Positions 18,580 through 49,649 of a DNA stretch of 64,000 bases are shown here, in pieces. The stretch covers positions 4,096,001 to 4,160,000 of the forward strand of contig OZ245838.1 of NCBI GenBank assembly GCA_965228735.1, read 5' to 3'. This DNA is from Planctomycetota bacterium. GTDB lineage: Bacteria; Planctomycetota; UBA1135; UBA2386. A model generated the notes under the pieces. That model was not told the DNA's origin, searched no databases, and saw only the letters and a list, made by a program, of their open reading frames with translations. The stretch's first letter is position 1; the number at the start of each line of letters is the position of its first letter. The position numbers and the translations under genes were made by a program.

Positions 18580-20472
18580 TTACGTGCCGATCTTCGCGCA
18601 GACGCCGTTCGACGCGATGACGCCAGCGGCGTTGAGGCCCGGCGTGATCGTGCCCGACTGCAGGAACACCTGCGTGTTGTTGAAGCCCGTCGGGACGTTC
18701 CAGGTCCAGCGCAGCTCGTTGTTCGCGGCGAACACGAACACACTCGTCACGATCGCGCCGATGTTCAGGTTCGACGTGCAGCCAGGCATGCCGAACGGGC
18801 CGAGGTTGAGGCCCGGGCTCTGCGGCAGCAGACCGATCGAGATGAAGCCGGCGCCGGTGCCAGCCGTGAGGCTGTCGACGACGATGTCGACGCTGGTGCC
18901 CGCGATCGGGCGGCCGTCGACGAACAGGTTCGGCGGGAAGGCGCCGTCACCCGTCTGGATCGCGCCAGCGCCCGACCAGTCGGTCAGACCGCCGAGCGGC
19001 GAGCCGTCACCCTTCGAGTAGCCGAGGATGGCATCGTTGCCACTCGCGGCGTCCGAGTTGAACAGGGTGCCGAAGGCGACGTCGAACTGGCCGCTGTCGT
19101 ACAGCGTCAGCTGGATGTCGCAGACTTCGTTCGCAACCGCCGGCCAGTTCGGGACGCCCTGCCACGTGATGCGGGCCGTCGTCGGGGTCGGGTTCTCGAA
19201 GTAGAGCGCACCGACGCCGCCGTTCAGGGCGAGGTCGAGGTCGAGGTCGGCGTTGAACGCGCAGATCTGCGCCAGCGGACCGCTCGGCGGGCCGTCACGG
19301 AAGGTGGCGGTGCTGCCGTAGTTCGAACCGCAGGTCGCGAACGAGGCATCCGTCGTCAGACCGAGGTAGATCTTGCCGTTGCTGTTGATCGTGATGTCGG
19401 TCGTCGTGCCACCCGGGTGCGGGAACGAGAAGCCCAGCGGCTGGGTGATGCAAGCATCGTCCCAGGTGCCAGAAGAGCTCGACGTGAAGCCCGTCGGGTT
19501 GCCGGCGAGGTTCGTGCCGCTCGCAACCGGAGCGAACGGGGCGCCCGGAACGATGAGGTAGGAGTCCTGCGGGGAACCCTGCGGCAGCCACGTGTAGCCA
19601 CCACCGACGGCGCCGGTCGCCTCGTACTGCGAACCCTGGGCCGTGCCGGCCGGGATGACGTCGTACGCCGCCTGCGGGCGGTTGTAGCAGCCTTCACCGT
19701 ACTGGAGCGAGAGCGCAGCGCTCGCGTCCGGCGTGTACTGGATCTGGATGTTGACGCTGTCCTGCGCGCCGTTCGGGGTCGCGTTGTCGATCACCGCGCC
19801 CGTCGCGTCGACGGTGTGCCAGCCGTTCTGCTGGATGCCGTCGTTGCTGAGCGTGATGAACTGGTCGCTCCAGGTGATCGCCGGGTTCGGGCTCACACCG
19901 ATCGTGTGGATCGCGCCCGTGTTGGCGGTGACGACCAGCGGCGTGTTCGTGTAGGTCGTCGGGATGACCTGGATGCACATGCCGTACTGGCCGGCCGGCA
20001 GCGTGAACGGCGTCGGGTTGCCGGTGACCGGGTCCTTGAAGTTCGCGATCGGGCTGTCGCCGTTCCAGGCGACGACCGTCAGCTCACCGAGAACCTCGGG
20101 CTCACCGTCGGCGGTGCCGGCACCGGTCGCGTCGATGCCCCAGTTCGCGCGCATGGTCTCGTTGCCGACGCGCGTGCCCGGGATCAGGTAGATGCGAACC
20201 TCGGCGATGTTGCCGACCTGGTCCGGAACGACCGGGTTACCAGCACCCTGGTCGTACGTCGTGACGTTCATCCCGGTGATCTCGATCGGCGACGCCAGAT
20301 CGATGTCGATGAACTGGCCGAGCGAGTTGTCGACGAGGTTGCCGTAGTAGAAACTCGCGGCCCACGGATCGTAGGTGCGAATGTCGGACGGAGGCGGACT
20401 ACCGGCGCAGTTCTGCGCCATGGCGATCGTCGACGTAGCGGCGACCGCGAGAGCCAAGGAGACCTTGTGCAT
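18580..20472 (-). CDS. Secreted/surface protein with signal peptide and shared C-terminal domain; paralog of 47883..49649
   Basis: Signal peptide ending AMA-Q; Gly/Thr/Asn-rich; YGEGC motif; C-terminal RPIAG...PGC...FLQ...SNG. Confidence 0.75.
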   Translation of the reverse strand: MHKVSLALAVAATSTIAMAQNCAGSPPPSDIRTYDPWAASFYYGNLVDNSLGQFIDIDLASPIEITGMNVTTYDQGAGNPVVPDQVGNIAEVRIYLIPGTRVGNETMRANWGIDATGAGTADGEPEVLGELTVVAWNGDSPIANFKDPVTGNPTPFTLPAGQYGMCIQVIPTTYTNTPLVVTANTGAIHTIGVSPNPAITWSDQFITLSNDGIQQNGWHTVDATGAVIDNATPNGAQDSVNIQIQYTPDASAALSLQYGEGCYNRPQAAYDVIPAGTAQGSQYEATGAVGGGYTWLPQGSPQDSYLIVPGAPFAPVASGTNLAGNPTGFTSSSSGTWDDACITQPLGFSFPHPGGTTTDITINSNGKIYLGLTTDASFATCGSNYGSTATFRDGPPSGPLAQICAFNADLDLDLALNGGVGALYFENPTPTTARITWQGVPNWPAVANEVCDIQLTLYDSGQFDVAFGTLFNSDAASGNDAILGYSKGDGSPLGGLTDWSGAGAIQTGDGAFPPNLFVDGRPIAGTSVDIVVDSLTAGTGAGFISIGLLPQSPGLNLGPFGMPGCTSNLNIGAIVTSVFVFAANNELRWTWNVPTGFNNTQVFLQSGTITPGLNAAGVIASNGVCAKIGT

Positions 20473-20817
20473 GTTTTGTCTTGTCTTGGAGAAGGGAGAA
20501 AGAAGGTCCTGGGACAGGACCAGGGGGAGCCATGGTTCCGCGCCCGGGCGATCTCGTCAACGTGGTCCGAAGACCAGGGTGATTCGACGCTTGCGGCGAA
20601 GGCGAAATGCAGCGAGAAACCTGGCGGCGAAGGGTATCGCACCGACCGGGGGTGAGTCGGCGGACTACGGACGTCGGGCGCCCGGGCAATGTTCGGCGGA
20701 TCCGCAGATTTTGACCGGGCACGTTGCCATGATGCAGTTTGCGGTGATCCGTAGCCCGCGGCAGTCGCCCCGTCATGCCATGGCCCTAAACCCGGGCGAC
20801 ATCGTAGACTTCGCGCG

Positions 20818-21447
20818 ATGACCGACCTGTGGATCGCGACCGGGAATGCCAAGAAGCGCGCTGAGCTCGAGCGCCTCGTCGACTCCTTCGGCGTCCGCGT
20901 CCTATCGCCCGCCGCATTGGGTAGTCGGTCGAACGAATATGTCCCGATCGAGGACCAACCGACGTTCGCGGGTAACGCCGAGAAAAAGGCGGCGGCGCTG
21001 GCACGACTTTGTGACGCCCACACGCTCGCGGACGACAGCGGCCTGTGCGTCGACGCGCTCGATGGCCGCCCCGGGGTGCACTCCGCCCGCTACGGCGGCC
21101 CCGGCCTCGACGACGCCGGCCGCGTCCGCGCGTTGCTCGAGGAGCTCGCGGCGGTCCCGCCCGAACGCCGCACGGCGCGCTTCGTCTGCAGCCTGTGCGT
21201 GTGCGATGGCGACGGCACGGTGCTGACCCGCATCGAGGAGAGCTGCGAGGGCACGCTCCTGACGGAGCCGAGCGGCGCCGGCGGCTTCGGCTACGACCCG
21301 ATCTTCGTGCCGCTCGAGTTCGACGGCGATCCGGCGCGCACGTTCGCCCGCCTCGACGCGGAGCAGAAGGACCGACTGAGCCACCGCGGCAAGGCGCTGC
21401 GCAAGCTCGCTTCGGTGCTGCCGACGATTCTGCCGAAGGATCGATAG
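20818..21447 (+). CDS. rdgB: Non-canonical purine NTP pyrophosphatase RdgB/Ham1
   Basis: ATGNAKK, ADDSGL, PGVHSARY, GFGYDPIF, SHRGKAL. Confidence 0.93.
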   Translation: MTDLWIATGNAKKRAELERLVDSFGVRVLSPAALGSRSNEYVPIEDQPTFAGNAEKKAAALARLCDAHTLADDSGLCVDALDGRPGVHSARYGGPGLDDAGRVRALLEELAAVPPERRTARFVCSLCVCDGDGTVLTRIEESCEGTLLTEPSGAGGFGYDPIFVPLEFDGDPARTFARLDAEQKDRLSHRGKALRKLASVLPTILPKDR

Positions 21448-21484
21448 GCCAGCACCCCCCGCGCCGGCCCCAGCCGCGACCGCC

Positions 21485-23323
21485 ATGACGATCGAGATCC
21501 TCATCGTGCTCACCACGCTCGCCGCGGTGCTCACGCTGCTGATCGGCACGCGCATTCCGGCCGATGCGATCCTCGTTGCCGGGCTGACGCTGCTGCTCGC
21601 CGTGCCGGTCCCGGTCGACGGTGGCGTGCAGATCGGCATCGTGACGCTGGCGGACGGCGTGCAGGGCTTCGGCAACCCCGGCATGCTCGCGGTCGGCGCG
21701 CTGTTCGTCGTCGTCACGGGTCTTCGCGAGACGGGCGCGATCGACTGGATCGCGACGACGCTGCTCGGTCGGCCGCAGAACGAACGCTCCGCGATCGTGC
21801 GCGTCATGCTGCCGGTCGCCGCGATGAGCGCGTTCCTCAACAACACGCCCGTCGTCGCGATGATGATCCCGGCGATCCAGGACTGGAGCAAACGACTGCA
21901 GCTGGCCGCGTCGCGCCTGCTGATCCCGTTGAGCTACGCCGCGATCCTCGGCGGCACGTGCACGCTGATCGGCACGAGCACCAATCTCGTGGTGGCCGGC
22001 CTCGTCGCGGAGAACCCGACCATCCCCGACCTCGCCATGTTCGACCTGACCTGGGTCGGGCTGCCGTGTGCCGTGCTCTGCGGCGCGCTCGTCGTGTTCC
22101 TCGGCCCGCGGTTGCTGCCGAACCGCGCCGGCACCCTCGGCACCGGCGCTGCGGGCACCGCCGGCACCGCGAGCCTCGCCGACACCAAGGAGTACACCCT
22201 CGAGCTCGTCGTGCCGACCGGCAGCCCGCTCGCGGGCCGCAGTATCGACGAGGCCGGGCTGCGTCGATTGCCGGGGTGCTTCCTGATCGAGATCGAACGC
22301 GGGGGCGAGATCATCGCATCGGTCGGACCGCACCGCCGGCTCGAGGAAGGCGACCGTCTGTTGTTCGCCGGCGTCGTCGACTCGATCCGCGACCTCGTGA
22401 AGACGCGCGGGCTCGAACTCGCGACCGACCAGGTCTTCAAGCTCGACGCGCCGCGCTACAAGCGCCGACTGTTCGAGGCCGTCGTCGCGCCGACCTCGGA
22501 GCTCACGGGCACGACGATCCGCGCGGCCGGCTTCCGCAACCGCTTCGCCGGCGCCGTCATCGCCGTCGCGCGCAACGGCGAACGGGTGCGCGGGCGCCTC
22601 GGCGACATCCGGCTCAAGGGCGGTGATCTGTTGCTCGTCGAAGCCGAACCCAAGTTCGACGACCGCGCGAGCGCGTCCGGCGACTTCCTGCTCGTGCGGT
22701 CGCTCGAGGACTCGACGCCGCGCCAGCATGCGCGCGCGCCGCTCGCCGTGCTGATCCTGCTCACGATGGTCGTGCTCGTGACGACCGGCGTCTATCCGAT
22801 GCTGGTCGCCGCACTCCTCGCGGCCGGCGCCATGGTGCTGACGCGGTGCTCGACGCTCACGGTCGCGCGGCGCGCGATCGACTGGTCACTGCTGATCGTG
22901 ATCGGCGCATCGCTCGGCATCGGCGAAGCGATGTCCCAGAGCGGCGCGGCCGACTGGCTCGCAGGCTCGGTGCTCGCCCTGAGCGGCGGCAACGCGTGGC
23001 TCATGCTCGCGGCCGTCTACGCCACGACCGCGCTGCTCACCGCGGCGGTCAGCAACGCGGCCTCCGTCGCGCTCATGTTCCACATCGCGGTCGCGGGCGC
23101 GACGGCCCACGAGCTCGACCCGATGCCGTTCGTGATCGCCGTGATGATGGCCGGCTCCGCGAGCTTCGCGACGCCGATCGGCTACCAGACCAACCTCATG
23201 GTGTACGGCCCGGGTGGCTACACGTTCCGCGACTTCCTCCGCATCGGCGTGCCGGTCAACCTCGCGGCCGGCATCGGCACCGTGGCGCTGACGCCATGGG
23301 TGTTTCCGTTCCACCCACAATGA
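21485..23323 (+). CDS. SLC13/DASS permease with two TrkA-C domains (probable sulfate transporter)
   Basis: SAFLNNTPVVA, LGGTCTLIGTSTNL, SFATPIGYQTNLMVYGPGGY; sits beside cysQ and cysDNC. Confidence 0.88.
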   Translation: MTIEILIVLTTLAAVLTLLIGTRIPADAILVAGLTLLLAVPVPVDGGVQIGIVTLADGVQGFGNPGMLAVGALFVVVTGLRETGAIDWIATTLLGRPQNERSAIVRVMLPVAAMSAFLNNTPVVAMMIPAIQDWSKRLQLAASRLLIPLSYAAILGGTCTLIGTSTNLVVAGLVAENPTIPDLAMFDLTWVGLPCAVLCGALVVFLGPRLLPNRAGTLGTGAAGTAGTASLADTKEYTLELVVPTGSPLAGRSIDEAGLRRLPGCFLIEIERGGEIIASVGPHRRLEEGDRLLFAGVVDSIRDLVKTRGLELATDQVFKLDAPRYKRRLFEAVVAPTSELTGTTIRAAGFRNRFAGAVIAVARNGERVRGRLGDIRLKGGDLLLVEAEPKFDDRASASGDFLLVRSLEDSTPRQHARAPLAVLILLTMVVLVTTGVYPMLVAALLAAGAMVLTRCSTLTVARRAIDWSLLIVIGASLGIGEAMSQSGAADWLAGSVLALSGGNAWLMLAAVYATTALLTAAVSNAASVALMFHIAVAGATAHELDPMPFVIAVMMAGSASFATPIGYQTNLMVYGPGGYTFRDFLRIGVPVNLAAGIGTVALTPWVFPFHPQ

Positions 23324-23459
23324 CCGACGACGCCGGCGGCCTGGTGAATTCTCGGCGCTCGCGTGGATCGGTGGGATGATCTGTGAACAGTGGCGTTGCC
23401 GCATCGGGCGTTGGAGTTTGTACCTGGCACCGCACCCAACCCGTGATACGACTTTCGCG

Positions 23460-24305
23460 ATGACTGCCCCGACTGCGGATGAACTCCAGGCGCGCCTCGA
23501 CTTCGCGGCGCAGATCGCCGGTGAAGCCGGCCAACGGCTCAGCGGATTGCGGGCGAGCGGGCGTTGGGCGGACGAGAAGATTCTCGGCGACGTCGGCGAT
23601 CAGGCCGCGGACGGCTATCTGCAGGGCTATCTGCGTGGGCGCTATCCCGAGGACGGCATCCTGTCGGAGGAGACGAAGGACTCGCCCGAACGGCAGCAAC
23701 GGCGCTACACGTGGATCGTCGATCCGCTCGACGGCACGAAGGAGTACCGCACGCAGCGCCACGACTGGGCGGTGCACGTCGGCCTGTGCCTCGACGGGGA
23801 GCCGCTGCTCGGCGCGGTGGCGCTGCCGGGGGTCGGGCGCGTGATGCGGGGCATCTGCGCTGCGGGACACGTTCGGGCAGATGTCACGGTCACGGGCGAC
23901 GTCGCGGGCAAGGCGGATTGGCCGCGCGCGTTCGCCGGCGATTCGCACGAGGCCCCGCATGACGGACCGCTCCGCATCGCCGCGAGCCGGAGCCATACCC
24001 CGGACTGGATGACGCGCTTCGTCGACCACCTCGGCAACGCCGAACTCGTGCCGTCCGGCAGCGTCGGCTTCAAGGTCTCGCTGCTGCTGTTCGGCAAGGC
24101 CGACGTCTACGTCCACAAGACCGGCCTCAAGGAGTGGGACACGTGCGCGCCGGAGGCGATCGCCCGCGCCGCGGGCTGGGCCGTCTGCCGGCTCAGCGGC
24201 GAGGCCCAGCGTTACAACCAGGACAACCCGCGGAACGACGAGATCGCGGTGTGTCGCAAGGAGTTGCTGCCGCGGGTGCTCGAGAGCGTGCAGGCCGCGC
24301 TGTAG
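23460..24305 (+). CDS. cysQ: 3'(2'),5'-bisphosphate nucleotidase CysQ
   Basis: ILSEE, WIVDPLDGTKEY, SRSH, EWDTCA; start moved to ATG 23460. Confidence 0.85.
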   Translation: MTAPTADELQARLDFAAQIAGEAGQRLSGLRASGRWADEKILGDVGDQAADGYLQGYLRGRYPEDGILSEETKDSPERQQRRYTWIVDPLDGTKEYRTQRHDWAVHVGLCLDGEPLLGAVALPGVGRVMRGICAAGHVRADVTVTGDVAGKADWPRAFAGDSHEAPHDGPLRIAASRSHTPDWMTRFVDHLGNAELVPSGSVGFKVSLLLFGKADVYVHKTGLKEWDTCAPEAIARAAGWAVCRLSGEAQRYNQDNPRNDEIAVCRKELLPRVLESVQAAL

Positions 24306-24351
24306 TGGGCTTCTGTCCGACCCCGCACCGTGTCGATGACCGACTGACCCC

Positions 24352-25248
24352 ATGAGCTTCGTTCGCACCTACGACGCCGGCAACGCACCGCGCGGCATCT
24401 TCCGCCACCTGCGGGCGCTGCTCGGCTACCCGGCGCTGGTCTGGCAGAACCGGTTCCTGATCCACAACAGCTTCCGCCGCGAGCTCATGAGCCGCTGGCA
24501 CGGCTCGTTCCTCGGCGCGTTCTGGATGCTCGCGCAGCCGCTGTTCCAGTTCGCGATCTACTACTTCATCTTCGGCCTGCTGTTCGGCGAGCGCGGCACC
24601 GACAAGGCACCCGACGGTGCGTTCGCGGTCTACCTGTTCAGCGGCATCATCGTGTTCCACGCGCTGACCGAAGCGTCGAACAAGTGCGTGAGCATCATCG
24701 GCGCGAACGGCAACCTCGTGAAGAAGGTCGCGTTCCCGTCCGAGGCGCTCGTCATCCCCGTCACGATGATCTCGCTCGTGCTCTATCTCATCGGGGCGAT
24801 CGTCTGCCTCGTGATCGGGATGGCACTCGGGATCCTCGAACCGGGTCCGCTCCTGCTGATGCTGCCGGTCATCCTCGCCGTGCAGGCGGTGTTCACGATC
24901 GGCTTCGGACTGTTCCTCGCCAACCTCAACGTGTTCGTCCCCGACGTCGGACAGCTGTGGCGCATCATCTCGATGGCGTGGATCTTCCTGACGCCGGTGT
25001 TCTGGATGCCGGATCGGCTGGCCAACCTGCACGATCACGGGCTCGGGTTCGTCGAGACGATCGCGCGCTACGGCAATCCGGCGTTCTCGCTCGTCATGTG
25101 CCACCGCCTCGCGCTCGGGGGCACCAGCCCGATGCTCGGCGAGTTCTGGCCGCAGTTCGGCGTCTTCTGCGCCTGGGCGTTGTTCTTCCTCGTCCTCGGC
25201 TACACGACGTTCGTGAGCCAGAAAGAGAAGTACGCCGACATCGTCTGA
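24352..25248 (+). CDS. wzm: ABC-2 polysaccharide export permease (Wzm/RfbA-like)
   Basis: GSFLGAFW..AQPL, NLVKKVAFP, FLTPVFW, NP motif, C-terminal YADIV. Confidence 0.85.
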   Translation: MSFVRTYDAGNAPRGIFRHLRALLGYPALVWQNRFLIHNSFRRELMSRWHGSFLGAFWMLAQPLFQFAIYYFIFGLLFGERGTDKAPDGAFAVYLFSGIIVFHALTEASNKCVSIIGANGNLVKKVAFPSEALVIPVTMISLVLYLIGAIVCLVIGMALGILEPGPLLLMLPVILAVQAVFTIGFGLFLANLNVFVPDVGQLWRIISMAWIFLTPVFWMPDRLANLHDHGLGFVETIARYGNPAFSLVMCHRLALGGTSPMLGEFWPQFGVFCAWALFFLVLGYTTFVSQKEKYADIV

Positions 25249-25272
25249 CGCGCGCGACCGCCCAGAGAACGA

Positions 25273-26499: not shown

Positions 26500-26502
26500 T
26501 TG

Positions 26503-32415: not shown

Positions 32416-34680
32416 ATGTCTCGCTCAACCCGACTGTTCTCCCTGGCGCTGCTCGGCGCCTTCGCGATCGACCTGCTGCCGGCCCAGGTGCCGGTCCACA
32501 CCGCCGCCGACGACGACGGCAGGGCGTACGGCACGTGGGCCGCGGGCGACGACTACAAGGTCGCGTTCGACGGCGGCATGACGTTCGTCCCGTATCTCGG
32601 CAAGGACTACCCGGAGAACCGCCCGTTCTCCTGGCGCACCGCATCGTTCCGAATCGGCGAGACCGAGCTGCTCGGTGAGGGTGAACAGCCCGAGTCCGCG
32701 GCGGCGGCGAATGGCTGGCGCTACGAGTACCGCTTCGCGGCGTTCACCGAGGCCTACGACGTGCGTCCGGACGGCGTCGAACAGACCTTCGTGATCCCAC
32801 AGCGCCTCGCGACGGGCTCCCTCGGCACGCTGGAGATCCGCGGCGCGATCGCCACCGATCTCACTGCCGCACCGCGCGGCCACGAGCACGCACCGCTCGT
32901 GTTCGGCGACGCGCAGGGCAACACGGTGTTGCGCTACGGCGCCGCAGTCGCGATCGATGCTGCCGGCGAGCAGTGCGCGATGACGACCGCGTTCGATGAC
33001 GGCGCGGTCACGTTGCGACTCGACGGTGAGTGGCTGGCGAGCGCGACGTTCCCGGTCGTCGTCGACCCGCTGCTCGGCGTGTTCTTCGCGAGCGGGGGCA
33101 ATCTCACGACCGAGGTCGACGTGCTCCACGACCCGCTCGGCAGCGGTGGCCACATCTGGCAGACGACAACGCGCTGGGCCAGCGCCAACGACTCCGACGT
33201 GTTCCTCCGTCGCATCGAGAGCAACGGCTCGTCGACGCCGGTCTACGCGGACACGAGTTCACTGTGGTCGTCGATGCACCCGAGCCTCGGGCGCCATCGC
33301 TACGGCGCCTGCACGCTGCTCGCGTTCGTGCGGCACTTCCACAACTCGGACACCCGCAAGCTGCGGTGGCACAAGCACGGCCGCGCCGACTTCACGCTGT
33401 CGACGAGCTTCGGCTCGGTCGACACCGGGCTCTTCCAGGCGCAGCGCCCGCGCGTGGCGTCCGACCTGAGCGTGATCACGGGCCAGTATCTGCTCGTCGT
33501 CTACCAACAGGAGAACGGCCACACGTTCTACGAGAACAACGGCAGCGAGATCTGGGGTGCGGTGATCAGTCTCTACGGCGCCGGTTCGGCCGCCCTGCCG
33601 TTCGCCATTCACGACCAGACGTTCGAGGACGCCGAACGCCCGGACGTGTCGACGATCGAACTCGGCGGCAATCACACGTGGACGGTCGCCTACCAGGTGA
33701 TCGGCAACAGCCCGATGTGGAGTCCGCATACGAGTTGGGACATCGAGATGCGCCGCGTCGATCGCCACGGCAACGTCTCGGCGGAGACCGTGATCGCCTC
33801 CAGCTCTGACCGCCACGACATGGGACCGAAGCTGGCCGGGCTGAACGACACGTTGTTCCTCGGCTACACCAACGGCTACTCGTCCGAGCTCGGCAGCCGG
33901 CCGACGGAAGCACGCGGCACGGCGATCGTGACCGAGCGGCGCGAGTGGAACGGCGCGAGCTTCGACCTGCCCTACTCGAGCTACTACACGGCCTCGACCA
34001 ACAATCTCGGCGAGTGGCGCGAGCTCTGTGACATGGAGCTGGATCTCACCACCCGCAGTCACTGCGCCAGACTCATTCGCTACGACAACGCCAGCGTCCT
34101 CTTCACGGTCACCGGCTACCAGGGGCGCCGCGTGCACGGCGAGCTCGCCTACGCCGGCGGCTGGGCCAGCGACGCGCTCGACGCCGCTGCGGCGTTCGAC
34201 GAGAACGACGGCACGTTCGTGCTCGGCACCGCCTACGACTCCGCGCAGAACGCGACGAGCGGCGTCGTCCTCGACCGCTACGCCCACCCGACGGCCGCGC
34301 CGATCCAGTCGACCGGCCTCGGCTGCGGCAGCGGCACGCTGTCGTGGGTCGGCAGCCAGCTCATCGGCGACGAGGACTGCGAGGTGCGCATCGACAACAT
34401 CGCGCCGACCGCGCTCGCGGCGATCGTCGTCGGGCTGCAGCCGTACTCGCAGTTGCTGCCGCCGATGCCGCCCGTCGTGCCGGGCTGCTGGCAGCTCGTG
34501 CCGACCGCCGGTCCCGGCAGCCTCGCGACGCTGCCGATCGTCATCGGGTCGAACGGCTACGACATCGACCTGCCCGAAGCGTTGATTCCGTTCACGCTCT
34601 ACTTCCAGGGCGTGCACTTCGACGCGAGCAACGCCTCGGTCTACACGACCGAGCGCCTCGAAGTGCCGCTCGTCAAGTAG
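32416..34680 (+). CDS. Secreted protein; paralog of 34713..37007
   Basis: Signal peptide ending LPA-Q; shares YK..F..GMTFVP, AFTEAYDV, ATxPVVVDP and C-terminal TLYFQ...RLEVP with its neighbour. Confidence 0.75.
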   Translation: MSRSTRLFSLALLGAFAIDLLPAQVPVHTAADDDGRAYGTWAAGDDYKVAFDGGMTFVPYLGKDYPENRPFSWRTASFRIGETELLGEGEQPESAAAANGWRYEYRFAAFTEAYDVRPDGVEQTFVIPQRLATGSLGTLEIRGAIATDLTAAPRGHEHAPLVFGDAQGNTVLRYGAAVAIDAAGEQCAMTTAFDDGAVTLRLDGEWLASATFPVVVDPLLGVFFASGGNLTTEVDVLHDPLGSGGHIWQTTTRWASANDSDVFLRRIESNGSSTPVYADTSSLWSSMHPSLGRHRYGACTLLAFVRHFHNSDTRKLRWHKHGRADFTLSTSFGSVDTGLFQAQRPRVASDLSVITGQYLLVVYQQENGHTFYENNGSEIWGAVISLYGAGSAALPFAIHDQTFEDAERPDVSTIELGGNHTWTVAYQVIGNSPMWSPHTSWDIEMRRVDRHGNVSAETVIASSSDRHDMGPKLAGLNDTLFLGYTNGYSSELGSRPTEARGTAIVTERREWNGASFDLPYSSYYTASTNNLGEWRELCDMELDLTTRSHCARLIRYDNASVLFTVTGYQGRRVHGELAYAGGWASDALDAAAAFDENDGTFVLGTAYDSAQNATSGVVLDRYAHPTAAPIQSTGLGCGSGTLSWVGSQLIGDEDCEVRIDNIAPTALAAIVVGLQPYSQLLPPMPPVVPGCWQLVPTAGPGSLATLPIVIGSNGYDIDLPEALIPFTLYFQGVHFDASNASVYTTERLEVPLVK

Positions 34681-34712: not shown

Positions 34713-37007
34713 CTACTTGATCACCGGCACCTCGAGACGCCGCGTCGACTCGAAGCGCGTGCCGTCGAAGACCCAATCCTGGAAGTAGAGGGTCAGCGGC
34801 GGCAACCACTCGGGCAGCGGGAAGGTCCAGCGCGGGAAACCCTGGCTCGGCGCCAGCTGGAAGTTCATCGTGCCGAGGTAGGCCGGTCCGTTGTCCACGA
34901 GGAGGAAGCAGCCGGACCCGACCGCGGGGTCGATGATCTGCAGGTTCTCCGGCGCGAGCGACACGAGCATGAAATGACCGCTGCCCGCCGGCGCGCTCAG
35001 CACGTAGATGAAGTCGGTCTCCGAACCGATCTGGCGACCGCCGTTCCAGCGCGGAGACACCGAACTGCAGCCCGGGCCAACGAGCGCCGTCGGGCCGGGC
35101 GGGTTGTACTCGAGCGGCCGACCCTGAAGGACCGCGCTCGAGCCCGTGGAACTGCCGGTCACCACGGAATACTGGTCGGGCCCGAGGGCAAACGTCACGG
35201 CTCCGGACTGCGCGAGCCCAGCGAGCGCGTCAGCCGGGCCTTCGGTCGGCTGGCCGGTGTAGCCGACGATCGCGTAGCGCGGCGTGTAGGCGCCGTTCCC
35301 CATCGATTCACGCCACAGCGGCGCAAAGTGCGAACGGTCGCGGCGATCGAACGCGAGGTCGAGCGTCTGCAGCACGCGTGTCGCCGATGCCTCCAACACG
35401 ATGGGTGCCTGATCACCCGCCGGGTCGGGCGTGGCGCTGCCCTCGAACCAGTCGAAGCGTTCGAGCTGCATCCGCGTGCCGGCCATGCTCGTCGTCTTGC
35501 TGAGGAAGAACGTCGGATACGACGCGAACAACACCGCCCAGCGGCCGTTGCCGCCTTCGACGACGGGGCGCAGCTGGTGCTCGTTGGACGCCGCCGCGAC
35601 GTCGCTCGTCCAGGTCCCCGACGCCACGGTGCCGGTCTGCGAGATGCGCTTGCCCGCGAGGTCCCAGTCGTCCGACGACAGCAGGTTGTTGTAGGTCTGG
35701 TAGACGCACATCCACGAGTACGGTGAGCCGTCCGCGACCTGGTTGACGCTCGGGCGCTCGTCGTCGGTCACGAGCGACGCACCGATCGGGAACTCCGTGC
35801 CGAACGTCCCGTTCGTGGTCGTGACGTCGAGGCGCACGCCGTAGACCGCGCTGCCGGCGACGTTGGAGAAGCCGCCCACGTTGTTCTCGCGCTGGAACAC
35901 GACGAGCGCATGCGAGCCGGTCGAGAATTGGCCGACGCCGCCGACGTCCGGGCGCCAATCGTTGCCACTCGAGGGCACGAACGACGTGTAGGTCGAGCTC
36001 TGCGTCAGATCTCCCAGATCGCGCACGTGCGCTCGCAGCTGACTGACGGTCGTCGGATTGTTCACGAAGTGACGGCGGAACACGATGGCCCAGCGGTCGG
36101 GGCCCGCCACGAAGGCCACGGCCGGGTGGTCGGTCACCCACGATGTGGTCATGTCGGTGAAGACCGTCACTGCACCAGCGAAGTCCTCGTCCGTGAGCCG
36201 CCCGAAGACGTCGACGTCGGTCGCCGAGAACGCCGCCGACCAGACCGTCAGGACGTCGTCACCGTGGACCCCATCGATGTGCGCGACGTCGACGTCCTCG
36301 AGCGGCACATCGCCCAGGTATCCGGCCACGGAAACCGGCGAGGTGAAGAACGGGTCGACGACGACCGGCAGCGTCGCTTTCGCGAGCCAGGTCCCGGGCA
36401 CGCTCAGCGTGATCTCGCCGTTCTCGTATCCAGTCAGCAGTTCGATCCTGTCACCGGTCGCGTCAAAGGCGAACGCCTTGCCGTAGCGCACGACCTCGTT
36501 GCCCTGCGCGTCGCGGAACGCCAGCGCGCCGTGCGCCGGCGCCATGCCGTCCGCATGCAGCTCGGTGGCCACCTTGCCGGTGATCACGAGGTCGCCGTTC
36601 CCCGGCAGTGTCTCGAACACGAACGTCTGCTCGAGCCCTGCGTGCAGCACGTCGTAGGCTTCGGTGAACGCCGCGAAGCGGTATTCGAATCGGTAACCGT
36701 CACCGTGCGGCACCGGGTGTTCGCCACGTTCGAGCAGATCGCGTTCACCGCGGCGCACCGACGCGGTCCGCCAACTCACCGGCAGATTGCGCGGATAGCC
36801 GCGCCCGAGCATCGGCACGAACGTCATGCCGTCGTGGAACGACGCCTTGTAGTGACCGCCGCCGGCCCAGATGCCGTACTCGGCACCGAGGTCGGGCGCT
36901 GCCGTGTGCACGGCGACGCGGAAGTCGTCGAACGGCACGCCTTCGGCCTGGGCGGCGAGCGGCGATGCGATCGACGCCACCAGCAACGCGATCACGGTGG
37001 TCTTCAG
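34713..37007 (-). CDS. Secreted protein; paralog of 32416..34680 (start uncertain: CTG 37007 or GTG 36995)
   Basis: (M)KTTVIALLVASIASPLAA-Q signal peptide and the same conserved blocks as the paralog. The listed 1043-aa ORF extension overlaps the next gene. Confidence 0.72.
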   Translation of the reverse strand: MKTTVIALLVASIASPLAAQAEGVPFDDFRVAVHTAAPDLGAEYGIWAGGGHYKASFHDGMTFVPMLGRGYPRNLPVSWRTASVRRGERDLLERGEHPVPHGDGYRFEYRFAAFTEAYDVLHAGLEQTFVFETLPGNGDLVITGKVATELHADGMAPAHGALAFRDAQGNEVVRYGKAFAFDATGDRIELLTGYENGEITLSVPGTWLAKATLPVVVDPFFTSPVSVAGYLGDVPLEDVDVAHIDGVHGDDVLTVWSAAFSATDVDVFGRLTDEDFAGAVTVFTDMTTSWVTDHPAVAFVAGPDRWAIVFRRHFVNNPTTVSQLRAHVRDLGDLTQSSTYTSFVPSSGNDWRPDVGGVGQFSTGSHALVVFQRENNVGGFSNVAGSAVYGVRLDVTTTNGTFGTEFPIGASLVTDDERPSVNQVADGSPYSWMCVYQTYNNLLSSDDWDLAGKRISQTGTVASGTWTSDVAAASNEHQLRPVVEGGNGRWAVLFASYPTFFLSKTTSMAGTRMQLERFDWFEGSATPDPAGDQAPIVLEASATRVLQTLDLAFDRRDRSHFAPLWRESMGNGAYTPRYAIVGYTGQPTEGPADALAGLAQSGAVTFALGPDQYSVVTGSSTGSSAVLQGRPLEYNPPGPTALVGPGCSSVSPRWNGGRQIGSETDFIYVLSAPAGSGHFMLVSLAPENLQIIDPAVGSGCFLLVDNGPAYLGTMNFQLAPSQGFPRWTFPLPEWLPPLTLYFQDWVFDGTRFESTRRLEVPVIK

Positions 37008-37174
37008 GGCAGGAGAAGGCGTCCCAGGGACGACACGAGGGCGAACGACACACATCGTGCAGGGGGTAGCGAGAGCGCTGCGCTGCCCGACTGCGATTTC
37101 CCCGAGAAACGCTCGCCCCGCAACACCCGAGTCATAAGCCCCAGCGAACCATGGGGCTGCGCGTTCACCAGGCG

Positions 37175-41732: not shown

Positions 41733-41876
41733 GGCTCCTTCTCCGATTCAGGGGTTTGCGCGCCGCCCTTTCCCGACGCGGCACCCGGATGGTCCCACAC
41801 GCGATCGCCGGCCTCAAGACACCCACCGATTTCTCACGCCGAGCGCGGTAGCATCCGCGGCTCGAAACCCGACGCG

Positions 41877-42839: not shown

Positions 42840-43028
42840 GTCGCCACCGGTCGCCGTCGATCGCTGCCGACTGCCACGGATCGCTCCGGTGCAGCCGGAG
42901 GGCCCACGTGAAGGTGTGACAGGTTGTCGCCCTTACCGGCCACTACGGGGGCGCCGCGGGTTTGGCTTTGGCAATCGGCGACTCGTCCGCCTTCAATGCC
43001 AGCCCGTTCCTCCACCACTCAGGATCTC

Positions 43029-43493: not shown

Positions 43494-43511
43494 CCAAGAG
43501 CCGAACGTCCG

Positions 43512-44447
43512 ATGAACGGCCGCCAGATCGCACTGATCGCCAAGTACTCGACGCGCTACTCCGTGCGCGGCGGCATCGGGCTGGTCTTCCTGCTCCTGTC
43601 CCTGTCGTTCGGCCTGCTGTCAGCGCACATCATGCTGCAGCCGGTCGAGATCGTTGTGAAACAGATCTCGGAGCAGAACGAGAACGCAGACAAGGGCGAA
43701 CTCACCGAGATGGTCCTCGAGCGCATGGTCAAGGAAGCCGCGCCGGTCGTCAGCTGGATGCTGTCGAGTTCCAGCGCCAATGACGACGATGAGACCGCGG
43801 CTGAGAAAGCCGAAGCCGCGGACGCGTGGGCCGAGTATCTGCTCGAAGAGCGCCCGGCGGTACTGTCCGCGATCTTCCTCATCCTGCTGTTTGGATGGCC
43901 CTTCATCGTCGCGATCGGCGCGTTCGACATCTACGCCGGCGACATCGGCTCGCGGCAGCTGCGCTACCAGCTGTTGCGCGTCGACCGCGGCAGCATCTTC
44001 TTCGGGCGATTGCTCGGCATGCTGGCGACGTTCGCCCTCGTGCTGTTACTGCTCGCGAGCACCGTCGTGCTCTACATGGGGCTCAAGCTCCCCATGTATG
44101 GCTGGGGTGAACTGGTCTCGTGGGCCTTGCAAGGCACGGCCGCGATCCTGTTCGTCTCGATTCCGTACGTAGCGCTCTGCGCGTGGATCTCGGCATCCAT
44201 CGGCAGTTCGTTCGCCGCGCTCACGATCAGCAAACTCGTAATCGCCGGCGTTCCGATGTTCGCGACGTTCGGCTCCTACACCCACGAGGCGGCCGGCTAC
44301 ATCAAGTACCTGCTGCCCTGGGGCGTGCAGAACCGACTGCTGCACCCCGAGTGGAGCCAGTTGCTGCTCGCCGCCGGGGTGTGTCTCGCGCAGACCGCGC
44401 TGTTCACCTGGCTCGGCTACCGCAAGTTCACGAGGCGCGACCTGTGA
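43512..44447 (+). CDS. ABC-2 type transporter permease
   Basis: DIYAGDIGSRQLRYQLLR..R..IFFGR, 6 TM, C-terminal FTRRDL. Confidence 0.8.
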   Translation: MNGRQIALIAKYSTRYSVRGGIGLVFLLLSLSFGLLSAHIMLQPVEIVVKQISEQNENADKGELTEMVLERMVKEAAPVVSWMLSSSSANDDDETAAEKAEAADAWAEYLLEERPAVLSAIFLILLFGWPFIVAIGAFDIYAGDIGSRQLRYQLLRVDRGSIFFGRLLGMLATFALVLLLLASTVVLYMGLKLPMYGWGELVSWALQGTAAILFVSIPYVALCAWISASIGSSFAALTISKLVIAGVPMFATFGSYTHEAAGYIKYLLPWGVQNRLLHPEWSQLLLAAGVCLAQTALFTWLGYRKFTRRDL

Positions 44448-45472
44448 CCGCACCGCCACCCGTTCCCTCCCCGGCGACGCCAGAAGCGGCGACCGGGCGT
44501 CAGGCGATCCGCGTGCAGAACGTCAGCAAGACGTTCGGCACGACCAAGGCGCTCGACGATGTCAGCTTCGACGTCCCCGCGGGTTCGATCTTCGGCCTGC
44601 TCGGCCCCAACGGCGCGGGCAAGACGACGCTGTTCTCGATCACGGCGGGGTTCCTGCAGGCCGACAGCGGTCAGCTGCAGGTGCTCGACACCGACATCCA
44701 ACGCGTCTCGCAGCTGCAGGGCCGCATGACGATCCTGCCGCAGGACGCGTCGTTCCAGAAGAACGTGCCGCTGCTCGACCAGCTCGTGTTCTTCCGTCGG
44801 CTCGACGGCAGCGATCCGGAGACGGCGAAGGAGGAAGTGGTCGAAGCGCTCGAGAAGGTCGGCCTCGCCGAATACCAGCAGCGCGGCATCCACGCGCTGT
44901 CGCACGGCATGCTCAAGCGCCTCGGCATCGCCCAGGCGTTCCTCGGCAACCCCGAGGTCATCATCCTCGACGAGCCGACGTCCGGGCTCGATCCGCAGAA
45001 CGCGCGCCAGATCCGCGACCTCGTGCGCGACCTGCAGAAGTCGGCCAACGTCACGACCGTCGTGAGCTCGCACAATCTCGCCGAGATCCAGGAGCTCTGC
45101 GACCACGTCGCGATCCTAGACCACGGCAAGGTCCGCGCGTGCGGCCCCGTCGAGGAGATCACGCGCAGCAGCCTGATGCTCGAGCTCACGACCTCGCGGC
45201 CGCTGCTGCCGGCCGACTGCGCGGCGCTGACGGACATCGCCGGCGTCACGACGATCGACGATCGCGGCCCGACGCGATACACGGCGCGACTCGCGCTGCC
45301 CCCCGGTCGGTCGGCGGACGACGTGCTCATGGCGGTGCTCCGCGCCCTCATGGACCGCGGCATCACGCCGCGCGGGGTCTCGCAGGGCAACAGCCTCGAA
45401 GAGTTCTTCCTGTCCGTCACCGGCGGTTCGGTGACTGACGGCGAGTCGGCTGATAGCGTCACCGCCGACTGA
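44444..45472 (+). CDS. ABC-2 type transporter ATP-binding protein
   Basis: GPNGAGKTT, LSHGM, ILDEPTSGLDP, SSH; GTG overlaps the permease stop. Confidence 0.9.
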   Translation: MTAPPPVPSPATPEAATGRQAIRVQNVSKTFGTTKALDDVSFDVPAGSIFGLLGPNGAGKTTLFSITAGFLQADSGQLQVLDTDIQRVSQLQGRMTILPQDASFQKNVPLLDQLVFFRRLDGSDPETAKEEVVEALEKVGLAEYQQRGIHALSHGMLKRLGIAQAFLGNPEVIILDEPTSGLDPQNARQIRDLVRDLQKSANVTTVVSSHNLAEIQELCDHVAILDHGKVRACGPVEEITRSSLMLELTTSRPLLPADCAALTDIAGVTTIDDRGPTRYTARLALPPGRSADDVLMAVLRALMDRGITPRGVSQGNSLEEFFLSVTGGSVTDGESADSVTAD

Positions 45473-45529
45473 CCGGCCGGCCCACCACGGCCGGCGCCGC
45501 TCCAACAGCCAACGCCAGCCGACCCCGCC

Positions 45530-47698
45530 GTGACCGCGACCGCGACATCGAAGAACCTGCTCGTCGAACTCTTCGTCGAAGAGCTCCCCCCGAAGGCCCT
45601 CGATAAGCTCGGCCGCGCGTTCGCCGACGGCATCGTTCGCGGACTGCGCGAGCAGGGACTCTGCAGCGACGACGCCCGACTCACCCCGTTCGCCACGCCG
45701 CGCCGACTCGCGGTGCACATCCAGAACGTGCTCGCCCAGGCCGCCGACAAGCAGGTCGAGATCAAGCTCGTCCCCGTCGCGATCGGTCTCGACGACGACG
45801 GTCAGCCGACCAAGGTGCTGGCGAAGAAGCTCAGTGCGATCGGCGCGGACGTGAGCGTCGTGCCGCAGCTGCGGCAGGCGAGCGACGGCAAGAAGGACAC
45901 GCTGTGGCTCGACCGCACCGAGCCGGGCGTCGACCTCGTCGCCGGGCTGCAGAAGGCGCTCGACGACGCCGTCGCCAAGCTGCCGATCCCCAAGGTGATG
46001 ACGTACCAGCAGCAGGACGGCTGGACGGACGTCAAGTTCGTGCGGCCCGCGCATCGCCTGATCGCGCTGCACGGCAGCGAGGTCGTGCCCGTCACGACGC
46101 TCGGACTCACCGCCGGACGGGAGACGCAAGGTCATCGCTTCGAGGCCGGCAACGTCGTGATCGACGTTCGCGATGCCGACAGCTACGCCGCGCAGCTCGA
46201 GAACGACGGCCGCGTGCTCGCGTCGTTCGCGGCCCGGCGCGACGCGATCCGAGCGCAGCTCGACGAGCGCGCGCAGGACCTGAACCTCACACCGATCGCC
46301 GACGACGATCTGCTCGACGAGGTCACCGCACTCGTCGAGCTGCCGAACGTGCTGGCCTGCGGCTTCGAGGACGAGTTCCTCAGCGTGCCGCAGGAATGCC
46401 TCATCCTGACGATGAAGCAGAACCAGAAGTACTTCCCGCTGCTCGACTCCGTGGGCAAGTTGACCAACCGCTTCCTCATCGTCAGCAACATCGCGCCAAA
46501 GGACCCGGGCGCGGTCATCGAGGGCAACGAGCGCGTCGTGCGACCGCGGCTCGCCGACGCCAAGTTCTTCTTCGACCAGGACCGGAAGAACACGCTCGAG
46601 TCGCGCTTGCCGCGACTCGCGAAGGTCGTCTACCACAACAAGCTCGGCTCGCAGCTCGAGCGCGTCGAACGCGTGCGGGCGATCGCGCGGGCCATCGGCA
46701 AGCGCCTCGGCGACGACCGGTCGGGCAGCGGGGGGTCGGGTAGCGGGGAAGCTGGTGGCGCAGACCTCGCGGCCCAGGCCGACCGCGCAGCCCAGCTCGG
46801 CAAGGGCGACCTGCTGACCGAGATGGTCGGCGAGTTCCCCGAGCTGCAGGGCATCATGGGCGGCTACTACGCGCTCAACGACGGCGAGCCCGAGGCGATC
46901 GCGCATGCGATCGAGGACCACTACAAGCCGCGGTTCGCCGGCGACGAGCTGCCGCGCAACGACGTCGGCCTCGTCGTGGCGCTGGCCGACAAGCTCGAGA
47001 CGCTCGTCGGCATGTTCGGCATCGGCCAGAAGCCGACGGGCGACAAGGACCCGTTCGCGCTGCGGCGCCACGCGCTCGGCGTGATCCGCATGCTCATCGG
47101 CAGCGAGTCGCCGCTCGAACTCGAAGAGCTCATCGGCTTCGCCGTGCCCGCGTTCGCGAGCAGCGGCGACCACGCGATCGAGGACCCGACGGCCGCGCTG
47201 TCGGACTTCGTGTTCGACCGCCTGCAGAACGCGCTGCGCGATGACGGCTACACGGCGCAGGAGGTCGCGGCCGTCGTGTCGCTGCGACCGCAGCAACTCG
47301 CGGACGTGCCCCGGCGTCTCGCCGCGGTGCGCGCGTTCGCCGCGCTCCCCGAGGCCGAAGCACTCGCCGCCGCCAACAAGCGCATCGGCAACATCCTCAA
47401 GAAGGGGACGGTCGACCCGGGCGTGGCGGTGCAGGAGAGCCTGCTCCGTGAAGACGCCGAGCGCCGCCTGTGGCAGGCGCTCACCGAGACCGACCGCGCC
47501 GCGCAGGAGCAGCTCGCGGCCGGGGATTACACCGCGGCGCTCAGCCGATGTGCGGCACTGCGCGAGCCGGTCGACGCGTTCTTCGAAGCCGTCATGGTCA
47601 ACGCGGACGACGACGGTTTACGGCGCAACCGACTCGCGCTCCTCGCGCGCTTGCAACGGCTGATGAACGGCATCGCCGACCTCGCGCAGCTCGCGTAA
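45530..47698 (+). CDS. glyS: Glycine--tRNA ligase beta subunit
   Basis: LLVELFVEELPP, TPRRL, FVRP, GNERVVRPRLADAKFF, MVGEFPELQG, DPFALRR, RRNRLALL. Confidence 0.96.
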   Translation: MTATATSKNLLVELFVEELPPKALDKLGRAFADGIVRGLREQGLCSDDARLTPFATPRRLAVHIQNVLAQAADKQVEIKLVPVAIGLDDDGQPTKVLAKKLSAIGADVSVVPQLRQASDGKKDTLWLDRTEPGVDLVAGLQKALDDAVAKLPIPKVMTYQQQDGWTDVKFVRPAHRLIALHGSEVVPVTTLGLTAGRETQGHRFEAGNVVIDVRDADSYAAQLENDGRVLASFAARRDAIRAQLDERAQDLNLTPIADDDLLDEVTALVELPNVLACGFEDEFLSVPQECLILTMKQNQKYFPLLDSVGKLTNRFLIVSNIAPKDPGAVIEGNERVVRPRLADAKFFFDQDRKNTLESRLPRLAKVVYHNKLGSQLERVERVRAIARAIGKRLGDDRSGSGGSGSGEAGGADLAAQADRAAQLGKGDLLTEMVGEFPELQGIMGGYYALNDGEPEAIAHAIEDHYKPRFAGDELPRNDVGLVVALADKLETLVGMFGIGQKPTGDKDPFALRRHALGVIRMLIGSESPLELEELIGFAVPAFASSGDHAIEDPTAALSDFVFDRLQNALRDDGYTAQEVAAVVSLRPQQLADVPRRLAAVRAFAALPEAEALAAANKRIGNILKKGTVDPGVAVQESLLREDAERRLWQALTETDRAAQEQLAAGDYTAALSRCAALREPVDAFFEAVMVNADDDGLRRNRLALLARLQRLMNGIADLAQLA

Positions 47699-47882
47699 TC
47701 CGACCCGGGTCGCGCGCCAGAATCGCTCGACCGTACACAGCCGGGCGATCGGCCCCTTCCGAACGCCGAGGTGATTCACCCAACGACGCAACACGTCACG
47801 GGAGAGAGGCTATGATCTTTCGACCGGCTGGATCGCGTTATCTCTGCGCGCTCCACCACACCTCTCCTTTTCCTACCCAGCC

Positions 47883-49649
47883 ATGCTGAAACAAACTCTC
47901 TTCGCCATCACCGCACTGACGTGCAGTGCGCTGAGCCAAAGCCCCCTCTCGACCTTCAACGCTCCGAACAACCAGGGCAACATCGGCGGCATCGTCTACT
48001 TCGACCTGACCGTCGGTGCCACGAACATCACCATCACCGACCTCGCCTGGGTGCCGGCAGCGATCGGCGCACAGGGCGGCGGCATGGACATCTACATGGG
48101 CCCGGCCAGCTGGCAGGGTAGCCAGTCGTCCGCCGCGGCGTGGTCCGTCGTCGCCTCGACGGCCGGCTCCGTCCCGCTGACGGCCGGCACGTTGACCGCG
48201 CCCGATCCGCTCAACAACGCGATCTGCCTCGAGGCGAACACGACCTATGGCTTCGCGCTCGTCGCCACCAACGGCACGTCGGGCTTCTCGCACAACTACC
48301 AGAACGGCACGGGTTGCCCGCTGACCGGCACGGCCACGGGTATCGGCAACGTCAGCACCAACGAACTGCAGTTCATCGGCGGCGCCGCCCAGAACGCCCC
48401 GTTCAACGGCACGGGCGTCTTCTGCCCGCGCGTCTGGCAGGGTGAGATCCACTACACGGTCGACCCGACCTGCACGCCGATCGCCGTCGCGACGAACGAG
48501 CAGTACGGCGAAGGCTGCGTCAAGGACCGCACCTCGTACGACGAGCAGTTCCTCAACCCGTCCACGTCGCTCGACGTCGCGGGCATCACGGTCCTGCACC
48601 AGTTCACCGGCAGCACGTACAACGTGTCGGTCGGCGGCACCCCGTTCACCCCGCCGGGTGCGGGCGCGATCGCGCTGCCGGTCACGTCCAACACGGACGT
48701 CCAGAGCGTCGCGGCCAACAACACGGGCGGCCAGCTGCCGTTCCCGGTCTTCTTCCCGAACGGCGCCGGTGGCGTCGGCATCGCTGACGACCTCGAGGTT
48801 TGCGCTTCGGGTTACGTGACCCCGGTCGACGTGGCCGGCGCGGGCACGACGGCGCCGGCTCCGGGCTCCAACCCGGGCGACCTGTCGTCCACGCTCGATG
48901 AGTTCCTCCAGGGTGCGGCGCGCTGGTGCCCGAACTGGGTGAACCAGGATCCGAGCACGAGCGGCTCGGTCGTCTTCGAAGTCCTCGGCGCCGGCGCTGA
49001 GCTCGTCGTCACCTGGTCCGCCGTCCCGTACGGTGGCCTCGCGACGAGCGCCAACACCTACCAGATCGCGTTCTTCGCGAACGGCGACGTCGAGTTCCGC
49101 TACGACGCGTCGCAGACCGGCGCTGGCGCCGGTGGCTCGTGGCCGACCCTGATCGGTTGGACCCCGGGTCCGGCGCCGGGTGCGACCCAGGCGCTGCAGA
49201 ACTCGCTCGACGTGTCGTCGATCAACCTCACGACCTCGCCGATCGACAACCAGGAGCTCTTCATCGACCTGGACATGCGTCCGGTGATCGGCACGAACCC
49301 GAACATCGTCCTCGACGGCTACGATCCGGCGCAGGCGGCCCTCGTGTTCCTGCTGTTCAACTTCACGCCGGACGTCCCGGGCACGCTGCTCTCGAGCCTC
49401 GGCATCGGAGCGGGTGACTGCCGCGGCTACGTCGCGATCAACTTCAACGCGCTCGCGCTCGGCACCGGCGGCGTCGCCCCGGTGACGCGCAGTCTCGTTG
49501 GTGGTCCGATCCCGTCGGGCGCCGGCCTCAACGGCCTCGAGTTCTACATCCAGGGCGCCGCCCTGCAGGCGAACTGCGCCAACGGCCCGTGCAACCCGCT
49601 CGGCGCCACGTTCTCGAACGGTCTGCGCATCTTCATCGGCCTGCTCTAG
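47883..49649 (+). CDS. Secreted/surface protein; paralog of 18580..20472
   Basis: Signal peptide ending ALS-Q; YGEGC; C-terminal RPVIG...GDC...FYIQ...FSNGL. Confidence 0.75.
   Translation: MLKQTLFAITALTCSALSQSPLSTFNAPNNQGNIGGIVYFDLTVGATNITITDLAWVPAAIGAQGGGMDIYMGPASWQGSQSSAAAWSVVASTAGSVPLTAGTLTAPDPLNNAICLEANTTYGFALVATNGTSGFSHNYQNGTGCPLTGTATGIGNVSTNELQFIGGAAQNAPFNGTGVFCPRVWQGEIHYTVDPTCTPIAVATNEQYGEGCVKDRTSYDEQFLNPSTSLDVAGITVLHQFTGSTYNVSVGGTPFTPPGAGAIALPVTSNTDVQSVAANNTGGQLPFPVFFPNGAGGVGIADDLEVCASGYVTPVDVAGAGTTAPAPGSNPGDLSSTLDEFLQGAARWCPNWVNQDPSTSGSVVFEVLGAGAELVVTWSAVPYGGLATSANTYQIAFFANGDVEFRYDASQTGAGAGGSWPTLIGWTPGPAPGATQALQNSLDVSSINLTTSPIDNQELFIDLDMRPVIGTNPNIVLDGYDPAQAALVFLLFNFTPDVPGTLLSSLGIGAGDCRGYVAINFNALALGTGGVAPVTRSLVGGPIPSGAGLNGLEFYIQGAALQANCANGPCNPLGATFSNGLRIFIGLL

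Follow-up and report, generated by a model that had tools for sequence, protein, structure and literature searches.

An uncatalogued Ig-like terminal domain as a putative surface-sorting tag in deep-branching Planctomycetota

The type A C-terminal domain of the type IX secretion system (T9SS; PF18962, Por_Secre_tail, and FlgD_ig, PF13860) is a single Ig-like module that ends many Sec-exported proteins and is cleaved by PorU. Dockerins (PF00404), which are calcium-binding and EF-hand-like, and the dockerin-like tails of Phycisphaerae are also single terminal modules, and the GlyGly-CTERM and PEP-CTERM tags consist of a short motif plus a transmembrane helix and are cleaved. In the accessible part of a report on Vibrio, the GlyGly-CTERM/rhombosortase tag gives membrane association to proteins exported by a type II secretion system (T2SS), with a separate signal driving translocation (PMC13393428). 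Here, we analyzed a 64,000-nucleotide stretch of a Planctomycetota genome (assembly GCA_965228735.1, contig OZ245838.1, positions 4,096,001 to 4,160,000; the window) encoding four signal-peptide proteins that end in a common domain of ~120 amino acids (aa), the tag. The tag family turned out to be real, large, and uncatalogued, probably a terminal surface-sorting module that resembles T9SS C-terminal domains and dockerins in its working and belongs to neither by the tests applied.

In the four proteins (P0002 to P0005; Table 1, window coordinates), the initial annotation had read a ~110-aa C-terminal domain common to two paralogous pairs. All four open reading frames exist and carry the C-terminal ends quoted there, two of them on the minus strand, and the signal peptides claimed for them can be read in all four as an N-terminal hydrophobic stretch followed by an A-x-A-Q-type site. 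The proteins, including the passenger of P0004, gave nothing above noise in Pfam or NCBIfam. The pairing stood for P0002 and P0005, which are clear paralogues (E 1e-84), whereas P0003 and P0004 proved to be only remote ones, unlinked by phmmer and joined after two profile rounds (E 3e-28 and 2e-42); profile searches with the proteins never connected one pair with the other. Pairwise, only the tails of P0002 and P0005 aligned significantly (E 5e-11), the remaining pairs lying at E 0.5 to 81, and linking the tails across the two pairs by such alignment was rejected. Non-significant tail alignment had been named beforehand as counting against a common domain, yet a profile of the four tails, once converged, joins all of them at E 4e-15 or better. 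The common domain thus stood, while its size was corrected to ~120 aa and its start moved to an earlier position, at a G-C motif.

To count the domain genome-wide, as had been proposed, genes were called by our own codon-score script in the whole genome (G000; 7.19 Mb in one contig, 69% GC, 93% complete by markers), which gave 5472 genes. The four-tail profile found 66 proteins in the first round, 64 of them with a C-terminal match, and converged at 290; without speed filters it reached 341 proteins at E<0.01 and gave 0 matches in the reversed proteome. A second profile started from 32 diverged tails, which we chose by eye from proteins selected by composition, and the union of the two marks 381 tagged genes, the tag sitting on ~7% of this genome's genes and 10% of its residues.

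The consensus reads G-C ... P-x-l-G ... hydrophobic strand ... P-G-C ... i-P ... G ... Q ... D ... S-N ... last strand. AlphaFold2, run on the copy of P0002 with a 78-row alignment, returned a confident beta-sandwich (pLDDT 95.3, pTM 0.88), and the tag is accordingly predicted to be an Ig-like sandwich tied by a disulfide. The latter is suggested by the co-occurrence of the two cysteines, both being present in 192, neither in 82, and one in 51 of 325 copies, paralogues not being independent. Among the copies that keep the second cysteine only, 13 of 24, including those of P0004 and P0003, have the first motif 225 to 280 aa upstream; in these two window proteins the domain therefore appears to be split by an inserted stretch, with the first G-C ~260 aa upstream. 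A single-sequence fold of P0003, with its putative split, reached a pLDDT of 32 only. The copies of this genome carry hardly any charge and are hydrophobic (K+R+E 4%, GRAVY +0.43, median net charge -3).

The domain matches no existing Pfam or NCBIfam family and no PDB sequence, and 0 of 78 copies matched any T9SS-type C-terminal domain family in Pfam or NCBIfam at E<=0.1. The best structural match had a Z score of 8.1 (rmsd 2.8 over 93 residues), followed by rows tied at Z 7 to 8; no chain titled as a T9SS C-terminal domain was among the 50 rows shown. These matches, as judged from the model, reflect the generic arrangement of Ig, FnIII, and macroglobulin sandwiches (PECAM-1, complement C5, TEP1), a likeness in fold class only that implies no function. 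Foldseek gave no match at E<=0.001, and its top rows, the lipid-binding ML proteins (GM2 activator, MD-1, NPC2), were rejected as too weak (TM ~0.35, rmsd ~10). The ESM Atlas returned unnamed Planctomycetota clusters (best 0.93), the named matches being passenger families below 0.9. Literature searches gave no description of the domain, with subscription journals mostly outside their coverage and supplements excluded.

Beyond the lack of a sequence match, the tag differs from T9SS C-terminal domains in its ~120-aa length, its cysteine pair, and its long hydrophobic loop, and in occurring also in N-terminal, inserted, and split form in a host in which PorV was not found. It differs from dockerins in its unrelated fold, the lack of a PF00404 match, and a genome with no detected cohesin. 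From the GlyGly-CTERM and PEP-CTERM tags it is set apart as a folded all-beta domain, with neither the transmembrane helix nor the basic tail of those signals, and from autotransporters (type V), which have a C-terminal beta-barrel, by its predicted sandwich. The generic Ig/FnIII-like fold, with CBM56 and accessory domains of glycoside hydrolases in the group of tied structural matches (Z 7.0 to 7.1), could also fit a binding module that serves its cargo, such as an unrecognized carbohydrate-binding or adhesion domain. We consider this very improbable: the tag has no Pfam carbohydrate-binding match, it is never repeated within a protein, its passengers have unrelated activities, and, as described below, the tail of one orthologous cargo varies with host lineage.

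Each tagged protein holds exactly one copy, none of the 381 being duplicated. The copy lies at the C-terminus behind a passenger in 336 proteins and nearly stands alone in 16 (several of which may be fragments or mis-started); these 352 are at the extreme C-terminus. The domain ends 1 to 3 residues before the stop, without a basic tail. Of the other 29, 14 are followed by 16 to 50 residues that resemble the end of a passenger domain, 13 are N-terminal, and 2 are internal. Strictly C-terminal processing is unlikely in view of these 29 copies, and the N-terminal, internal, split, and stand-alone forms together make cleavage at a free C-terminus improbable. By home-made rules, used for signal peptides and lipoboxes alike, a signal peptide was called in 203 of 266 tagged proteins versus 1455 of 4394 others. 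Single-linkage clustering of 298 passenger bodies gave 113 clusters, 90 of them singletons, and P0002 belongs to a 29-gene paralogue family within the genome. Of 88 full tagged proteins in the fetched loci, 82 were scanned, with Pfam matches for 40 of them and none for 42; the matches were Kelch and other propellers, trypsin, S8, M14, the beta-lactamase fold, sulfatase, di-haem peroxidase, FG-GAP, Vps10, LamG, and DUF7452, a range similar to that of T9SS cargo (S8, M14, trypsin, FG-GAP, LamG, Kelch, peroxidases). The tag is thus a lineage-restricted module on hundreds of unrelated signal-peptide proteins that acts like an export or anchoring tag, much as had been supposed. As a separate observation, three multicopper oxidases (among G000:C1:494643-496607, 597064-599166, 4228049-4230127, and 529958-531718) carry a barrel-like tail, with a weak CopB match in the one scanned, and the fourth homologue is tagged.

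A search of 301 Planctomycetota genomes located the domain in 60, largely in an all-or-none manner by family (55 carriers with at least 6 matches among 14 scored candidates and 5 with one), and at the 50% identity level it matches 29,913 sequence clusters. A sister type, which has a Q-x-W-x-R-D strand, can be aligned with it over 109 columns (HH-suite probability 71, E 4e-5); it dominates one family of the same order and occurs in 13 of the 301 genomes, all within the 60. It is also present in the cultured strain Poly30 (Poly30_50180, Poly30_47500), which is Saltatorellus ferox; the accessible part of its description (10.1101/817700) contains no occurrence of C-terminal, signal peptide, or secretion. 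One protein of our genome (G000:C1:1749726-1750790) has a tail of the sister type (type B; E 3e-6).

How the tail behaves on orthologous cargo was followed in two proteins. The first is a tagged PF28492 protein that heads a conserved operon (G000:C1:4007090-4019012, locus L249; L093), in which a 413-aa protein comes next, followed by a TonB-dependent receptor, an ExbB-like pair, ExbD, TonB, and a TPR protein, and which is syntenic in G000 and in G177, a 2.4-Mb carrier of another order that is 86% complete (2.31 Mb examined). Among its 120 best homologues, the terminal part is this domain in 47, the sister type in 40, dockerin-like in 19, and something different in 14; the corresponding numbers for 80 GTDB loci were 30, 25, 14, and 9, with 2 cut off, and an operon neighbor was retained in 69 of these 80. 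A dockerin-like tail was present in each of the 6 loci whose titles give Phycisphaerales, Phycisphaerae, or Phycisphaeraceae, record titles often being unreliable. A rapid tree built from the bodies alone (78 rows, without the 2 that are cut off; weak deep support) requires 15 tail changes, where the minimum would be 3 and shuffling gave a mean of 39.5, so that tails cluster by lineage and have been exchanged more than once. The second is an M14 peptidase whose 120 best homologues carry this domain (38), the sister type (3), FlgD_ig (11, two of them named Eisenbacteria), or another end (63), with dockerin-like tails in 5 by pattern and in more by eye; T9SS-type tails thus occupy the same slot. 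A module serving its cargo would track the cargo, whereas the tag tracks the host. From the exchange it would also seem that Phycisphaerae use their dockerin-like tails as sorting tags and not as cellulosome parts. Three untagged PF28492 homologues (P0157, P0160, and P0163) have a short end motif with a tryptophan ~5 residues from the end, which is possibly another lineage-specific tag.

Evidence on the compartment came from amino-acid composition, which serves as a marker of extracellular proteins according to the accessible part of PMC3223724; the residue sets used (K+R+E and N+S+T) were our own choice. Tagged bodies (n=293) contain 8.3% K+R+E and 20.1% N+S+T, versus 17.7% and 12.6% in 539 untagged signal-peptide proteins, relative to which they are also rich in G. 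Only 51 of these 539 have a composition like that of tagged proteins, and ~30 of the 51 show a diverged copy by eye. In a cleaner, fold-controlled comparison with untagged homologues of the same genome, the tagged proteins were shifted in 40 of 45 pairs and in 10 of 13 families (Wilcoxon p 0.008). Five pairs were reversed; by eye, 4 have an untagged member with a lipoprotein-type N-terminus and 1 has a diverged tail. Among signal-peptidase-I proteins of extracellular type, 278 of 305 carry the domain versus 11 of 572 others (union set), a count that is partly circular, as the threshold came from the tagged set and the second profile from composition-selected tails. Of the extracellular-type lipoproteins, 5 have the domain (3 convincing) and 23 lack it, as expected if a lipid anchor substitutes for the tag. 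On these grounds, the tag probably marks surface or extracellular proteins.

It could instead be that the proteins stay within the envelope, the domain binding either peptidoglycan or the outer membrane on its inner face. No dedicated exit machine was found, di-haem peroxidases, sulfatase, and beta-lactamase-fold cargo could act in the periplasm, and polymer degradation in an enlarged planctomycete periplasm has been suggested (PMC11131199, accessible part). We nevertheless judge envelope retention improbable, given that untagged paralogues of the same enzymes show an ordinary periplasm-type composition and tagged ones do not, that the domain is nearly uncharged, and that it is exchanged with FlgD_ig and dockerin-like tails. 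Three untagged ~1150-aa Ig-like proteins of extracellular-type composition (G000:C1:2418873-2422367, 2695762-2699205, and 5166114-5169569) have a common C-terminus ending in F, and at least 2 of them a lipoprotein-type N-terminus; they are candidate surface scaffolds.

The genome was then searched for an export machine, the initial annotation having supposed an undescribed one. PorV (PF19572) had 0 candidates, its control being matched in Bacteroides thetaiotaomicron, and the autotransporter barrel PF03797 was not found, its control being matched as well. SprA (PF14349) was unmatched, though its control matched nowhere, and no SprA-sized barrel candidate was common to G000 and G177 among their 40 and 32 longest proteins; PF18962 was also unmatched, its control matching only below the cut-off. 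The genome has one C25 peptidase gene, with no T9SS genes seen around it, and one exosortase, located in an exopolysaccharide locus with about three PEP-CTERM proteins of its own, in addition to three Omp85 proteins and seven secretins. In G177, 39 proteins are tagged, 34 of them C-terminally. Of the 243 signal-peptide candidates common to both genomes, 158 were scanned against Pfam at E<=1e-12; the outer-membrane channels recognized in both comprised BamA, an LptD-like protein (a name taken from context), a TonB receptor, porin-like barrels, and secretins. No uncharacterized barrel common to the two was recognized, although fast-evolving or missing genes would escape. The supposition of a dedicated undescribed machine thus found no backing so far, as no such channel emerged from the scan of the two genomes and the tested secretins are wider in distribution than the domain. 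One Omp85-family barrel with a patatin-like N-terminus (motif-based; G000:C1:6386040-6388247, L242) is type Vd-like, with no orthologue seen in G177.

Three kinds of secretin or pilin loci were followed. Like hosts of known T2SS substrates, the host of the tag holds T2SS genes: GspD, with adjoining GspE/GspF-like genes and pseudopilins (E/F and pilin names from sequence), occurs in G000 and G177, and a GspD orthologue in 30 of 30 carriers tested and in 80 of 80 genomes at E<=1e-20, with 11 of 50 non-carriers scoring within the range of the carriers' GspD. A second cluster (G000:C1:6769699-6784599, L030; L044 in G177) comprises two secretins with TPRs that flank TPR proteins, ExbB, and two ExbD, and it adjoins an actin-like (MreB/Salactin) gene. 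Its twin secretin occurs in 220 of 301 genomes of the phylum, namely 59 of the 60 carriers and 161 of the 241 non-carriers, and the 949-aa TPR protein of the operon, too divergent to profile, in 22 of 301, 16 of them carriers. Separately, the short secretin was found in 77 of 80 genomes. TPR-tolQ-tolR-tolR-vWA clusters of unknown function are described in PVC bacteria, with no mention of the tag domain in the accessible part of that source (PMC12204202). The third, a pseudopilin-like cassette with no secretin inside the cluster (G000:C1:1397583-1410385, L240; L054, L158), encodes a 1735-aa pilin-type, a 904-aa TPR-like, and a 495-aa secreted protein, and a gene of it is present in 56 of 80 genomes (29 of the 30 carriers and 27 of the 50 non-carriers). 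A secretin route is thus present in every carrier tested, and nothing ties the tag to one machine.

The mechanism that we favor would begin with Sec export and folding in the periplasm, as the paired cysteines and the haem-c and sulfatase cargo suggest. The folded protein would then cross the outer membrane via a secretin channel, for which the type II system is the simplest candidate by elimination, and would be retained on the surface non-covalently, the domain, hydrophobic and with hardly any charge, touching the outer membrane, a receptor, or other copies of itself. That the tag is, over this whole chain, a general and uncleaved surface-display device holding exported proteins on the outside of the cell is, from what the sequences offer, a reading to which we give an even chance. 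A tether of this kind is preferred to a mere address on three grounds: the tag and lipoproteins are complementary, dockerin-like tails replace it on orthologous cargo, and some copies lie N-terminally, are inserted, or stand alone. The GlyGly-CTERM proteins of Vibrio set a precedent for a tag that anchors, with T2SS passage driven by another signal.

The domain could alternatively be a pure export address, recognized either by a type II system adapted to the lineage or by some undescribed translocon such as the twin-secretin ExbB-ExbD-ExbD operon, with the cargo later released or otherwise anchored, as with T9SS C-terminal domains. The slot that it has in common with FlgD_ig tails, its presence on most signal-peptidase-I proteins of extracellular composition, its invariably single copy, and the near-universal twin secretin of carriers would all be explained. 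The N-terminal, inserted, split, and stand-alone copies fit an address poorly, as do the mostly untagged lipoproteins of extracellular composition, and no machine gene among those tested tracks the domain, the twin secretin and the cassette both being common in non-carriers. We regard this as possible, though on the unlikely side.

Several observations weigh against surface display by a tether. The C-terminal position of 352 copies and the absence of duplication fit an address equally well. No partner or reader of the tag was identified in the machine search, in which cohesin (PF00963) was also not found, its control being matched; none of the secretin systems tested is carrier-specific, all of them occurring in non-carriers too, and kinship confounds all of these counts. 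Composition is an indirect marker that may partly reflect beta-rich folds, to which the circularity pointed out above is added, and in G177 the domain was detectable in only 24 of 61 extracellular-type proteins, many of the others having similar-looking tails. Three proteins of G177 (L115:2596-8431, L085:12544-14121, and L099:17771-19504) have, by eye, a seemingly diverged internal copy followed by a stretch like that which splits the domain in G000.

With display by a tether as the preferred reading, a profile of the domain would serve to predict which proteins are likely at the surface in a large and mainly uncultured section of Planctomycetota, and the tag would be a direct handle on how planctomycetes bring folded enzymes to the surface, in which the cultured strain with the sister type is of use. 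A further step, tentative and in our view rather unlikely, is that the deep-branching Planctomycetota (the Saltatorellus clade and its neighbors) have a general surface pathway of their own, with an Ig-like tag on 5 to 10% of the proteome. The tag would be read by a type II system with one universal tag or by an ATPase-less twin-secretin ExbB-ExbD-ExbD machine, and the cargo held by it would form a mosaic coat. Such a pathway would be a functional counterpart of T9SS built from unrelated parts, the dockerin-like tails of Phycisphaerae being a second tag type on the same route.

Table 1. Tagged genes of the window and the positions of their tag domains and displaced motifs
Feature	Coordinates	Strand	Remarks
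P0004, 630-aa signal-peptide protein	18580..20472	-	Remote paralogue of 47883-49649
Tag domain of P0004, aa 510-629	18586..18945	-	E 7e-22; first cysteine absent locally
Displaced first motif Y-G-x-G-C of P0004, aa 258-262	19687..19701	-	~250-260 aa upstream of remainder
P0002, 754-aa signal-peptide protein	32416..34680	+	
Tag domain of P0002, aa 636-752	34321..34671	+	E 4e-20; copy used for AlphaFold2
P0005, ~760-aa signal-peptide protein	34713..37007	-	Convergent paralogue of 32416-34680
Tag domain of P0005	34722..35072	-	E 2e-16
P0003, 588-aa signal-peptide protein	47883..49649	+	No Pfam/NCBIfam match
Displaced first motif Y-G-x-G-C of P0003, aa 208-212	48504..48518	+	Putative split domain
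Tag domain of P0003, aa 456-586	49248..49640	+	E 4e-15

The start of P0005 is uncertain, with a CTG at 37007, an in-frame GTG at 36995, and an ATG at 37055. The four tagged genes are scattered among housekeeping genes of the window, without export machinery alongside, and flagellar basal-body genes (names from translations) occupy positions 405 to 8374 on the minus strand.

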